From a virus (lineage: Duplodnaviria; Heunggongvirae; Uroviricota; Caudoviricetes): a DNA stretch of 4,001 nucleotides. Made by a program: the position numbers and the translations under genes. The DNA lies in the IMG/VR virus record IMGVR_UViG_2713897161_000002; one strand, written 5' to 3'. Under the pieces are notes generated by a model. It saw nothing but the letters and a program-made list of their open reading frames with translations. It was not told the DNA's origin and ran no database searches. This document shows, one piece after another, positions 128 through 3,904 of this stretch; the stretch's first letter is position 1; every line of letters starts with the position of its first letter.

Positions 128-1282
128 TCAGTCAGCGTACCATTGCATCATTTCTCGTCTTCCTTCAAGGTAACGAGCATGGTTGTATGTACCACGAATG
201 CTGTTTTTGTCCGTATGTGCAAGTTGCATTTCAATCCATGCACTATTGAATCCTTTCTCATGTAGAATAGTACTCATTGTATGACGAAAACCATGCCCGG
301 TAGCTTTTTTGTCATAGCCAATCTTCTTCAAAACCATATTGACGCTTGCATCGCTGATAGGCCTGTTAACATCATTTCTTCCGGCAAAGATGTATCTGTA
401 TCTTCCCGTCAGTTCTTTAAGGATTTGGAGAGACCGAATTGCCTGATTTGAGAGGGGAACAATATGTTCCTTCCTCATTTTCATCCGGGTCGGAGGCACT
501 TCCCATATTTTTTGGGAAAAATCGATCTCACACCATTCCCCCATACGTAATTCTACGGTCCTCAGCCCTGTGAGCATCAACAATTTTGTAGCTTCACGGG
601 TTACAATACTGCCGGTGTAGTTTTCGAGTTTGTACAAAAACTCTGGTAGTTCAGGAGGAAGCAGGAATGGGTAATGTGTTCGTTTATGGCTTTTCATTGC
701 TATAACCAGATCAGAGGCTGGATTGTATCGAGCCCTACCTGTAACAATGGCATACCGAAACACTTCACCACATCGTTGGCGAACTTTATTAGCTAGCTCG
801 CAGGCTCCGCGGCTTTCAATACGCTGAAGAACTGCGAGAAGTTCAAGAGGTTCGATATCACTGATGGGTCTGTTTCCAATGTAGGGAAACACATTATTTT
901 TGAATGCTCTGTCGACATAATCAGCGTAGCTGGCCGACCAGCCTGAAACTTTTGCGTTGTACCACTCGGTGGCGATTGTGGCAAAAGTTCTTCCTTCAGA
1001 AAGGTTTTTCTCAAGATTTTCAGCTTTCTTGACTTCACCGGGGTCTTTACCATCGGCATGTATTTTCTTGGCTTCATCCCGACGTTTGCGAGCTTCAGCC
1101 AATGTAATAGTTGGATAGGTGCCAAATGATAGTTTCTTTTCCTTCCCTGCATAGTGGTACTTCATTCGCCAGTACTTTGAGCCGTTAGGATTGACCTGCA
1201 GGTAGAGCCCACCACCATCGGCAATTTTATAAATTTTATCTTTGGGTTTGGCTGTTTCAACTTGTCGAGCTGTCAGTGGCAT
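128..1282 (-). CDS. int: Site-specific tyrosine recombinase, P4-type phage integrase
   Basis: N-terminus MPLTARQVETAKPKDKIYKIADGGGLYLQVNPNGSKYWR matches the arm-type DNA-binding domain of P4-like integrases. C-terminal catalytic signatures are present: GHGFRHT (HxxR box) and IRGTYNHARYLEGRREMMQWYAD with the catalytic Tyr. Start placed at the ATG at 1282 (GAGG 7 nt upstream); the ORF stays open to a TTG at 1309 (AGGGG 6 nt upstream), so the true start is ambiguous. Stop is TGA at 128-130. Confidence 0.95.
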   Translation of the reverse strand: MPLTARQVETAKPKDKIYKIADGGGLYLQVNPNGSKYWRMKYHYAGKEKKLSFGTYPTITLAEARKRRDEAKKIHADGKDPGEVKKAENLEKNLSEGRTFATIATEWYNAKVSGWSASYADYVDRAFKNNVFPYIGNRPISDIEPLELLAVLQRIESRGACELANKVRQRCGEVFRYAIVTGRARYNPASDLVIAMKSHKRTHYPFLLPPELPEFLYKLENYTGSIVTREATKLLMLTGLRTVELRMGEWCEIDFSQKIWEVPPTRMKMRKEHIVPLSNQAIRSLQILKELTGRYRYIFAGRNDVNRPISDASVNMVLKKIGYDKKATGHGFRHTMSTILHEKGFNSAWIEMQLAHTDKNSIRGTYNHARYLEGRREMMQWYAD

Positions 1283-1408
1283 CTGGGGGCCTCGCAATAG
1301 ATTGACCAATATGTGCCCCTAAATAGGCCCCCAAATGTGACTTGATTTACGTACCCCTGAGGAGAATCACGGCGACTATTTGAGTAACATAAGTAAGGGT
1401 ATATACTG

Positions 1409-1790: not shown

Positions 1791-1811
1791 TAAAAAACCG
1801 CCATCAGGCGG
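1791..1811 (-). terminator. Rho-independent terminator (minus strand)
   Basis: Minus-strand reading CCGCC-TGAT-GGCGG followed by TTTTTTATT: a 5-bp all-GC stem (extendable with G.U and A-U pairs), 4-nt loop and U-tract. The TGA stop of the 1804-1971 ORF lies in the loop. Confidence 0.6.
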
Positions 1812-1971
1812 CTTGGTGTTCTTTCAGTTCTTCAATTCGAATATTGGTTACGTCTGCATGTGCTATCTGCGCCCATATCATCCAGTGGTCGTAGCAGTCG
1901 TTGATGTTCTCTGCTTCGATAACTCTGTTAAATGGCTCTCCATTCCATTCACCTGTAACTCGGAAGTGCAT
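1804..1971 (-). CDS. Hypothetical small protein (~55 aa), unknown function
   Basis: Minus-strand ORF MHFRVTGEWNGEPFNRVIEAENINDCYDHWMIWAQIAHADVTNIRIEELKEHQAA. ATG at 1971 has GGAG 9 nt upstream; the ORF is open to a TTG at 1986 with no SD. Co-oriented with neighbours and ends inside a terminator hairpin. An overlapping plus-strand ORF (1738-1974) has low-complexity antisense-like composition. Confidence 0.45.
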   Translation of the reverse strand: MHFRVTGEWNGEPFNRVIEAENINDCYDHWMIWAQIAHADVTNIRIEELKEHQAA

Positions 1972-2006: not shown

Positions 2007-2306
2007 TTATTCGATTCGCACACCTGGTATTTCGCCTTTTGATATTGCTAAGTCATAAATTTGCGCAGCACTATACCCATCTCGCATCCATGAATCTAAT
2101 GCGCGAATAGCCTCGTTACGCTTTTTATCTTCTCTCTCATTTTTGATATCAACGAGGACATCAACGCAATTAAGGCAAATGTGGATTTTGTCCTTACATT
2201 CGATCATGGCTGCTTTACCATGATTTACTCCACACAGTGAGCATAAATCTTCAGGGTCTAGCTGGTATTTCTGTAACGTTAGAGGGTTGAATGTTGAACA
2301 GACCAT
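2007..2306 (-). CDS. Hypothetical Zn-ribbon protein (CxxC...CxxC) with helical C-terminal half, ~99 aa
   Basis: Translation contains C-S-L-C ... C ... C-L-N-C with interspersed His, a treble-clef/zinc-ribbon-like arrangement, followed by a basic helical tail (RNEAIRALDSWMRDGYSAAQIYDLAISKGEIPG). Start placed at the ATG at 2306 (GGAG 6 nt upstream). The longest ORF extends to an ATG at 2318, but that codon directly abuts the upstream terminator U-tract and has no SD. Confidence 0.6.
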   Translation of the reverse strand: MVCSTFNPLTLQKYQLDPEDLCSLCGVNHGKAAMIECKDKIHICLNCVDVLVDIKNEREDKKRNEAIRALDSWMRDGYSAAQIYDLAISKGEIPGVRIE

Positions 2307-2318
2307 AATCATCTCCAT

Positions 2319-2342
2319 AAAACAAAACTCGCCGTAGCGAGT
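2319..2342 (-). terminator. Rho-independent terminator (minus strand)
   Basis: Minus-strand reading ACTCGC-TACG-GCGAGT followed by TTTGTTTT: 6-bp stem, tetraloop, U-tract. Lies 44 nt downstream of the stop of the 2386-2577 ORF. Confidence 0.6.
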
Positions 2343-2385
2343 TCAGATAAAAGAAATCCATCAATTGGTTAGGGTTTTTGTAATT

Positions 2386-2577
2386 CTACGAATTATGTTG
2401 TTTTTTAGCTTCAGTTTTCCATTCATCAAAGGCAGTGTCTTTGTTCATGGTGCTGATATTGATCTTACGGTCAATATCATATACACGCCACTCACCGTTA
2501 GGCCTCTCTTCGCATCTAACTAAGTATGAATTGCCATTAATATCTATGCGTCTGTCTATTTGCATGAACATTTTCAA
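2386..2577 (-). CDS. Hypothetical small protein (63 aa), AT-rich orphan or moron gene
   Basis: Minus-strand ORF MKMFMQIDRRIDINGNSYLVRCEERPNGEWRVYDIDRKINISTMNKDTAFDEWKTEAKKQHNS. AGAGGA SD 8 nt upstream of the TTG at 2577 (alternative ATG at 2571). Flanked upstream by a TATAAT hexamer and downstream by an intrinsic terminator. No recognisable family. Confidence 0.5.
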   Translation of the reverse strand: MKMFMQIDRRIDINGNSYLVRCEERPNGEWRVYDIDRKINISTMNKDTAFDEWKTEAKKQHNS

Positions 2578-2640
2578 TTTTCGAATCCTCTTTAATATGC
2601 ATTTTTTGCTATTTCAGTAGTTTACTATTGATGAGGCGTT

Positions 2641-2646
2641 ATTATA
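2641..2646 (-). promoter_or_regulatory. Candidate -10 hexamer (TATAAT) for the 63-aa orphan gene
   Basis: Perfect TATAAT on the minus strand inside a 157-bp AT-rich intergenic spacer, about 65 nt upstream of the 2577 start. TG-rich just upstream (GTGTG TATAAT) but no canonical -35 at 16-18 nt. Confidence 0.3.
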
Positions 2647-2734
2647 CACACTTCATTAATGCAAGCATCTTTATGCTATGCTACTAATTTAGCAATTGAT
2701 ATTCACCTTTATCGCGTATACCTTTACCGGCTTA

Positions 2735-2971
2735 TCACCGAAGTGGGGGGTGTGTGATTGTTTTCACTTCATATCCTCCATACGGAACATCAATTCTGCG
2801 ACTGGAGTCGTCGCGCTTCGGATATCCCTTTGTGATAATCAGGCGGTCATACTCCCGGAACATAATTCGCTTATTCCAATAGTCATTACACAGGCGATAC
2901 TCTTCCGTTTTCTCTCCTCGAATCATGGCATCGAAGTATTCACCTTTGACGGCAAGTTGTAGGTTAGCCAC
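2735..2971 (-). CDS. ASCH-like (DUF3850-type) small protein, 78 aa
   Basis: N-terminus LQLAVKGEYFDAMIRGEKTEEYR matches the ASCH-fold N-terminal signature (l.ik.eyf.ai..G.KT.E.R), and a GY motif follows. GTG start at 2971 with AGGAGG 6 nt upstream. The start overlaps the upstream Lar-like ORF by 8 nt. Domain call is by eye. Confidence 0.7.
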   Translation of the reverse strand: MANLQLAVKGEYFDAMIRGEKTEEYRLCNDYWNKRIMFREYDRLIITKGYPKRDDSSRRIDVPYGGYEVKTITHPPLR

Positions 2972-3266
2972 GGTTAACCTCCTGCGGAGTAGCCTTTACA
3001 AGCACTGGTGCAAATCCATCTTCATTAAGGTTATGAATATAGACTTCTGTTCTCCTGCGCTCTTCAACGTTTAATATTGTTTCTGGATCATAAACCCATA
3101 CTTTCATTCGACTATTCCATGAAGAAATCGCTTCAGATCTAGTTCGTTTTTCTGGTCCTTGGGCACCACATTTGCATGACACATAGCGCATTTTCCCTCT
3201 GATACTGAATGAGTATCCGATGTTAAGCACAGTGGAACCACAGAATGGGCAGCGATATAGATTCAT
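2964..3266 (-). CDS. Lar/RalR-family zinc-ribbon protein (restriction-alleviation family) with a ~45-aa C-terminal extension, 100 aa
   Basis: N-terminal ~55 aa (MNLYRCPFCGS ... VSCKCGAQGP ... EAISSWNSR) match the Lar/RalR pattern (CPFCG ... C.CG ... EA...WN.R) as I recall it from Rac prophage RalR. ATG overlaps the Ea22-like stop (ATGA). AAGGTGGA SD 7 nt upstream. Confidence 0.8.
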   Translation of the reverse strand: MNLYRCPFCGSTVLNIGYSFSIRGKMRYVSCKCGAQGPEKRTRSEAISSWNSRMKVWVYDPETILNVEERRRTEVYIHNLNEDGFAPVLVKATPQEVNRG

Positions 3267-3904
3267 AAATCATCCACCTTAGGCGCAGCTGAGACAGCAA
3301 CATTCCAGAACTCAGAAAACATATTGTATGCACCAGATAGATTGGAAGTGGCATACCCTCCAAGCTCACTTCTAATCTGAACGGCTCTCATCATTTCCGG
3401 TGTTAACTCCTTCGGCACCATAACCCAACCATCCGGAGTTACCGGAGAGTTGCCATCCAGCGCGTTCAACTTGTAAGCCTGGCTTACAAGTTCGGCTTCC
3501 AGTTCTGCTATGCGCTTCTCTGATGCTTCAAGTAACGCCTGCTTATCGCGTAGCGCTTCTTCCAGTTCAGCAACATGGCACTCACTATCAATAAGGTTGT
3601 TCTCTGCGGCTTCCAGCTCAACACGCAGCTTCCCTACCGTTAGCGCAATATCCTCGTTCTCCTGATCGCGGCGTTTTATGTATTGCTGGTTTCTTTCCCG
3701 TTCATCCAGTAGTGCCAAAGCAATCTTTGGATTAAAGGCAGCAATAAATTCAGCGTTGTTTTTCAGAACGTGTTGCGCAATGGCCTGACTACTTAGTCGG
3801 ACCTCATAACCACGTGCGCCACGGTGTGGTTTATATGAGTCCCAGTCTCCCCACGTTGCCTTCTCTGCCGCCTCACGCAGTGCCTGATAGTCAATCTTGC
3901 TCAC
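3263..3904 (-). CDS. Ea22-like (ead/Ea22 family) prophage protein with central coiled coil, 213 aa
   Basis: N-terminus MSKIDYQALREAAEKAT and the FIAAFNPKIALALLDE segment resemble the conserved N-terminal domain of enterobacterial Ea22-like proteins. The middle is heptad-like and charged (RVELEAAENNLIDSECHVAELEEALRDKQALLEASEKRIAELEAEL). GTG start at 3904 with AAGGAGG 6 nt upstream. The start overlaps the stop of the upstream ORF (GTGA). Confidence 0.8.
   Translation of the reverse strand: MSKIDYQALREAAEKATWGDWDSYKPHRGARGYEVRLSSQAIAQHVLKNNAEFIAAFNPKIALALLDERERNQQYIKRRDQENEDIALTVGKLRVELEAAENNLIDSECHVAELEEALRDKQALLEASEKRIAELEAELVSQAYKLNALDGNSPVTPDGWVMVPKELTPEMMRAVQIRSELGGYATSNLSGAYNMFSEFWNVAVSAAPKVDDL

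Follow-up and report, generated by a model that had tools for sequence, protein, structure and literature searches.

ORF63, a 63-codon reading frame on the minus strand of a 4,001-nucleotide stretch of viral DNA (hereafter the window, meaning the whole stretch at that length), is by its substitution pattern a genuine protein-coding gene, and alignment with related phages identifies the mobile unit to which it belongs as leader plus gene, ~340 bp, set between an ASCH-domain gene and a pre-existing terminator junction. On balance we favour the reading that ORF63 is probably an ordinary mosaic accessory gene that has been inserted, together with its leader, upstream of a common operon-internal terminator and would be expressed at least from PL. 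The earlier note on this DNA had described the same region as a moron cassette of promoter, gene and terminator; the insertion between adjacent genes and its lower GC content are borne out, but the terminator lies outside the cassette and the −10 hexamer is at chance level.

To judge from its genes, the window comes from an Sf6/HK620-like, P22-like phage and covers the int-proximal end of that phage’s leftward early operon (Table 1). In the list of open reading frames, the window genes lie on the minus strand throughout, with stops overlapping starts. The gene order is that of Sf6 genes 16–26, and DNA identity to Sf6, HF4s, Kapi1 and many Stx phages is 95–97%, so synteny and identity together confirm the placement in an Sf6/HK620-like early-left operon. 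One viral contig, L039 (IMGVR_UViG_2778261184_000015), is near-identical to the window, with 1 mismatch in 2456 bp. The integrase gene, an attP core (~1456–1520) and the excisionase gene are contiguous within 128–1746, an order shared with HK620, Sf6 and KplE1, in which attP is flanked by int and xis; given this contiguity, the window represents the phage after excision, not an integrated prophage. The longest open reading frame of the gp19-like gene, downstream of ORF63, begins within the terminator U-tract, at 2318; as the 300-nt RefSeq version and the PHROG profile indicate, the true start is likely the ATG at 2306, which the GGAG of the junction element precedes by 6 nt. Further along the operon, a second strong hairpin resembling an intrinsic terminator overlaps the 60-aa gene at its stop codon, shortly before the TorI-type excisionase gene begins, and Sf6 has a putative promoter, ‘pI’, annotated in the homologous interval.

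Table 1 Features of the window, in descending order of coordinates
Feature	Position	Strand	Details
Ead/Ea22 gene	3263–3904	minus	
Lar-like restriction alleviation gene	2964–3266	minus	
ASCH-domain gene	2689..2971	minus	frameshifted here; ORF stops early at 2735
Inserted segment	2360..2697	minus	338 bp, 33% GC; last ASCH codons, leader, ORF63, 26-nt trailer
Intergenic leader/spacer	2578..2688	minus	111 nt, 30% GC; accompanies ORF63 in all copies
ORF63	2386..2577	minus	TTG start 2577..2575, TAG stop 2388..2386; phrog_16329
Junction element	2308..2359	minus	~52 bp; terminator hairpin, then GGAG ribosome-binding site of next gene
Sf6 gp19-like Zn-finger gene (phrog_3680)	2007..2318	minus	downstream of ORF63
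60-aa protein gene	1804–1986	minus	
Second intrinsic-terminator-like hairpin	1795..1814	minus	AAGCCGCCTGATGGCGGTTTTTTATT
TorI/HK620-type excisionase gene	1546–1746	minus	
Integrase gene	128–1309		

The 63-aa frame picked out by the earlier note is present (2386–2577, minus strand, TTG start), as is the strong Shine–Dalgarno sequence that it named, AGAGGA at 2591..2586 (minus), 8 nt before the TTG; this motif is kept in all 30 close copies, bar one A-to-G change. The protein matches phrog_16329 along its full length (E = 4.2e-48, 162 bits, residues 1–63 on profile positions 1–63 of 63) and shares ~65% amino acid identity over 61 aa with the product of gene 31 of phage HK639 (YP_004934061.1). 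Between ORF63 and its HK639 counterpart, differences at the three codon positions number 14, 12 and 33, with pN 0.21 and pS 0.80 over the 61 aligned codons, and in substitution pattern the sense frame outdoes all five alternative frames. The frame is thus conserved as coding in its homologues, under purifying selection, which supports the earlier note on this point. An exhaustive HMMER search over 1.84 billion proteins adds two further true relatives (P0008 and P0009), at 49% and ~35–36% identity. Sixteen residues are invariant across four ORF63 lineages; the TTG of the window aligns with the ATG or GTG starts of the homologues, and a Shine–Dalgarno sequence precedes each. Matches that the same program spreads over many stretches of large repeat proteins (CCDC39, CVNH, LTD, MORN_2) are summed short-motif noise from unrelated families and were discarded. 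Two longer versions of the protein, a 75-aa extension (L014) and the 88-aa HK639 annotation, which begins 26 codons upstream of the conserved start, were also rejected: their upstream part is unconserved and crosses an A-run of variable length.

Of 5426 complete E. coli genomes, ~27 carry ORF63, and the family is represented at 33 IMG/VR loci; no relatives were found in 185,579 species-representative genomes. Judged by where it turns up, it is a rare, horizontally mobile small accessory gene. In E. coli OkiPb01684 (L012, 2290/2383) the leader is interrupted by an IS66-family element at a point matching window ~2597, ~20 nt before the TTG, and in two soil isolates (as in L013, from MEI1A-0323, at 2001–2150) only the 3′ 72 nt of ORF63 are left; to go by such copies, the module is decaying in some prophages.

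The boundaries of the insertion emerge from a four-way alignment of the window with UMNK88, MG40 and Sf6. At the empty sites in UMNK88 and MG40, the ASCH gene is followed by ~30 bp and then by the hairpin element, and the window has ~338 bp instead; after the ~30 bp, UMNK88, MG40 and Sf6 continue with GGATTTCTTTTATCTGAACTCGCTACGGCGAG.... Because ~338 bp replace ~30 bp before the hairpin, the hairpin falls outside the insertion. The GC content of the inserted segment, 33%, compares with a window mean of 44%. The earlier note had proposed comparing related prophages for presence or absence of the cassette between the ASCH and Zn-finger genes; in such a comparison UMNK88 and MG40 lack the leader and the gene. 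The sequence CAATTG stands at both ends of the insertion, at 2360–2367 (ATCAATTGCT, left) and 2690–2697 (ACCAATTGAT, right), and could reflect insertion microhomology or mere chance in AT-rich DNA.

A second arrangement, hereafter type B, is seen in nine loci (L014, L016 and others), which carry the same leader and ORF63 without the 52-bp element. The block that they share with the window runs from window position 2730 or 2987 down to 2369; ~95 nt past the stop there is a different hairpin, of −25 kcal/mol and with a UUUUAC tail, and a DinI-like gene comes next. In L014 the upstream gene is a chimera with only the last ~13 ASCH codons, and, since the leader is kept there although the upstream gene differs, the leader always travels with the gene.

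On the upstream side, the 157-bp spacer (2578–2734) by which the earlier note had set the cassette apart is an artefact of a frameshift in the ASCH gene. The window reads CCCCCC on the minus strand (plus-strand G-run 2745–2750) where 17 relatives have five bases; the extra C is private to the window and the near-identical contig L039, and the resulting frameshift shortens ASCH to 78 aa, versus 93 aa in relatives, where the annotation is a 93-aa ASCH domain-containing protein. As the extra C puts the 3′ end of ASCH out of frame, the apparent gap is inflated: 46 bp of it are that out-of-frame end, and the real intergenic spacer is 111 bp (2578–2688). The homopolymer expansion represents either recent pseudogenisation or a homopolymer sequencing error. 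Sf6 has an ASCH remnant of its own (L003 ~2215–2300, between genes 19 and 20), in which the ASCH ribosome-binding site and first ~10 codons are joined directly to the last codons; it looks as if the stretch between two AAAGGTGAAT direct repeats, one near either end of ASCH, had been deleted.

Downstream of ORF63, the hairpin with a U-tract reported by the earlier note is present, with an 8-bp stem at 2344..2325, a UACG loop, a U-tract at 2324..2315 and the tail TGTTTTATGG; the tract directly after the stem-loop is UUUUGUUUU. It folds at −11.9 kcal/mol (z = −4.5) and has the structure of a rho-independent (intrinsic) terminator. Two G·U changes in the MG40 variant keep the stem and pair only in minus-strand RNA, so the hairpin belongs to the minus strand, and the phage MG40 record annotates the element as ‘terminator’. 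Its distribution extends far beyond that of ORF63. The junction element occurs in 2226 of the 5426 complete E. coli genomes (about 41%), at ~3100 places, and in 178 phage records, with carriers including 434, HK140, mEp213, CUS-3, Sf6, 933W-type Stx phages and Salmonella P22-like phages. Among 120 viral contigs with the hairpin, there are at least 14 upstream flank classes and 5–6 downstream gene classes, and ORF63 lies upstream in only 4 contigs; Sf6, MG40, UMNK88, Kapi1 and 434 have the element without ORF63. By these comparisons, 2308–2359 is a junction within the leftward operon, combining a terminator with a ribosome-binding site, that thousands of lambdoid prophages have in common and that is not ORF63’s own, and the earlier assignment of the terminator to the cassette fails on three counts: it is outside the insertion, present at empty sites and absent from the type-B module.

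In many phages the junction element extends to ~80 bp, from the TAA stop of the upstream gene to the next start codon. In the predicted RNA fold, AUUUCU on the upstream side of the hairpin pairs with the GGAGAU Shine–Dalgarno sequence beyond it, a pairing that might couple read-through to translation of the next gene. In phage 434 an internal terminator is annotated just upstream of pI (OL657226.1, citing PMID 6305007). The 434-type PL-operon terminators and the 2308–2359 element are alike in consisting of a GC-rich hairpin and a U-run within the leftward operon, upstream of xis/int, but sequence and position differ. By analogy, the element would be comparable in role to PL-operon internal terminators and read through only by antiterminated polymerase. 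In lambda, PL transcripts reach xis and int via N antitermination (PMC2951348).

ORF63 lies in the int-proximal accessory (‘ea’) region of the early-left operon. Its co-orientation with all neighbours suggests PL transcription: antiterminated transcripts from PL, made in lytic growth or on induction, would be its main source of message and make it a delayed-early gene, and its translation would start at its TTG, behind a strong Shine–Dalgarno sequence of its own. The terminator at 2308–2359 would act as a generic internal terminator of the leftward operon. ORF63 resembles the P22-like ‘ea’ genes (Sf6 genes 19–22; Ead/Ea22, Lar-like, ASCH) in location, orientation, small size and mosaic presence or absence, but it has an unusually long non-coding leader, whereas its neighbours overlap.

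That leader is where the chief rival reading finds its footing. We regard it as possible, if rather unlikely, that ORF63 is a true moron, in which a leader sigma-70 promoter (−10 at 2646..2641, start near 2634) would be active in the repressed prophage, the transcript would end at the 2344..2325 hairpin, and ORF63 expressed in the lysogen would give host benefit, exclusion, defence or anti-defence. The moron criteria of Juhala and Hendrix (in PMC3594210) are extra DNA, different composition, its own promoter, its own terminator and prophage expression, and several features of the locus fit that definition: the insertion separates genes that stand next to each other in related phages and is lower in GC, the leader accompanies the gene even where the upstream gene differs (L014), a perfect −10 precedes the start codon and a functional-looking terminator follows directly. 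Every family member, moreover, precedes a terminator-like hairpin, which is the 3′ half of a moron layout. The lambdoid morons of HK97 and HK022 (PMC3594210) are likewise extra low-GC DNA between adjacent genes, with a single small gene and a factor-independent terminator; in contrast to them, the terminator of ORF63 is not cassette-specific, being already present at empty sites and missing from the type-B module, and its −10 is at chance level.

The promoter half of the layout comes down to one hexamer. The perfect minus-strand TATAAT noted earlier is indeed present at 2646..2641, 57 nt upstream of the ORF63 start codon; as a promoter it is exact in the hexamer but at chance level and without a −35. 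The window holds 3 copies of TATAAT against 3.15 expected, and the chance that a dinucleotide-shuffled spacer has one or more on that strand is 0.23–0.35. At 15–19 nt spacing the best −35 matches at 2 of 6 positions, an extended −10 is absent, and a consensus promoter scan does not call the site. In the nine type-B loci, which form a sister lineage, the hexamer is AATAAT, a variant that retains the two most critical −10 bases, A at position 2 and T at position 6. The leaders of four divergent homologues have no shared promoter or motif, and CII-type (TTGC-N6-TTGC) and LexA-box motifs are absent from the ORF63 leader by eye. Between the TATAAT and the Shine–Dalgarno sequence, an A-run at 2607..2602 (minus) ranges from 6 to 9 bases among near-identical copies, a variation which indicates that the leader does not encode protein and can gain or lose bases. 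Two sublineages diverge by about 7% in the leader and 2% in the ORF, so that the supposed promoter region is less conserved than the gene that it would serve.

The composition and length of the leader lean the other way. It is AT-rich, as the earlier note had said of the spacer (30% GC), and a 111-nt AT-rich non-coding leader is unusual in an operon of otherwise overlapping genes; the further claim that the ORF itself is AT-richer than its neighbours holds for overall GC (37% vs 40–49%) but not for GC3, which at 0.42 is within the neighbours’ range. In HK639 the leader is ~124 nt long and contains a 9/12 promoter-like match, placed 43 nt before the start codon, and the L010 homologue has a ~123-nt AT-rich leader with no promoter-like match. 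Given these long leaders and the HK639 match, a promoter may exist, and a weak constitutive promoter in the ORF63 leader is possible. Against a true moron stands the L009 homologue, which is leaderless and translationally coupled, its start overlapping the stop of the upstream gene (ATGA).

The terminators beside the wider family bear on a further alternative. In all five lineages of the family a terminator-like hairpin comes soon after the gene, and these hairpins are unrelated in sequence; for the HK639, L010 and L009 homologues, a hairpin resembling an intrinsic terminator follows within ~20–45 nt. HK639 gene 31 is like ORF63 in lying close to int at the distal end of the leftward operon, with an annotated terminator straight after it, but its neighbours, leader and terminator sequence all differ; a search of the literature on HK639 terminators found nothing relevant. 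In L010, which has the most divergent homologue, four consecutive genes in 4200–6670 form a series of single-gene units, each closed by a strong intrinsic-terminator-like hairpin: the homologue itself (ORF62), a 91-aa ORF, an MT-A70 methylase and a P22_AR_N antirepressor-like gene.

It is therefore conceivable, though we think it improbable, that the ORF63 family has spread as ‘gene + terminator’ cassettes at operon ends, and that in the window the terminator has been swapped for the common junction by recombination. Four to five lineages each have their own hairpin and U-run 20–130 nt past the stop, in HK639 and L009 that hairpin is the only strong same-strand terminator in 5–8 kb, and a rough joint chance, our own estimate from terminator counts, comes to about 5e-4. 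Yet the terminators have no common sequence, so co-transfer with the gene cannot be shown, and intergenic regions that contain terminators are simply permissive places for new genes to land. The association is also weak in L010, with its four terminators in 2.5 kb, and the type-B hairpin, ~95 nt downstream, has a 4-U tail only.

The single-sequence AlphaFold2 model of ORF63 (pLDDT 86.3, pTM 0.69) has four beta strands and a C-terminal helix; from its sequence the protein is hydrophilic, without a membrane segment, and has no enzymatic motif. The earlier note could not place it in any family, and this stands in part: phrog_16329 is matched over the full length, and is a PHROG family without assigned function, but neither ORF63 nor any of six family members matches Pfam or NCBIfam even at E ≤ 10, and Foldseek of the model against the PDB and BFVD returns nothing at E ≤ 0.001. 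A sequence-profile search of the PDB with ORF63 gives noise only, and the PADLOC-DB defence models have no match at E ≤ 0.1 for ORF63 and its immediate neighbours. The product is predicted to be soluble and, tentatively, may act by binding and modulating a host or phage protein.

One fold resemblance was considered and set aside. TriX, the immunity protein of the Xenorhabdus Rhs toxin TreX (PDB 8s2m/9gco), has 11–12% identity to ORF63 with a Foldseek E-value of 0.28 and is double the length; scores much like that of TriX are reached by profilin and by many other sheet-plus-helix proteins, and there is no sign of homology or shared function.

A more specific version of the binding idea, that the ORF63/HK639-gp31 family is a new class of small inhibitors of proteins, expressed from the prophage (binders of an immunity-like or anti-defence type, say), always carried as single-gene units right before an intrinsic terminator and transcribed from a −35-less promoter in the leader, strikes us as quite improbable. 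Least credible of all, to the point of being very nearly discounted, is a chance open frame, with the function of the AT-rich region residing in a non-coding RNA or an antisense gene: RefSeq/PGAP leaves the ORF63 interval unannotated in about 25 E. coli genomes and an antisense frame is open both in the window (2435–2620, plus) and in HK639, but the sense frame is free of stops at 64% amino acid identity, its changes concentrate at third positions (33 vs 14 and 12), the coding signal of the antisense frame is poorer (53% identity, pN 0.26, pS 0.50), the Shine–Dalgarno sequence and start codon are conserved in four lineages, the single-sequence AlphaFold2 fold is confident, the whole window has no Rfam match at E ≤ 1, and the RNA structure of the leader is not significant (z = −1.7). 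The antisense ORF at 2435–2620 was rejected on its substitution pattern.

The present value of ORF63 is mainly one of annotation, as a conserved 63-aa gene missed in about 25 E. coli genomes. The apparent terminator of its cassette is a ubiquitous recombination junction of lambdoid early-left operons, and since a shared junction could here be mistaken for a gene’s own terminator, a promoter–gene–terminator layout that has been read off one sequence may turn out to be composite. The constant position of the ORF63 family directly before terminators is a small regularity. Were a promoter present in the leader, ORF63 would join the small proteins that lysogens express and that are of possible interest for exclusion or anti-defence.
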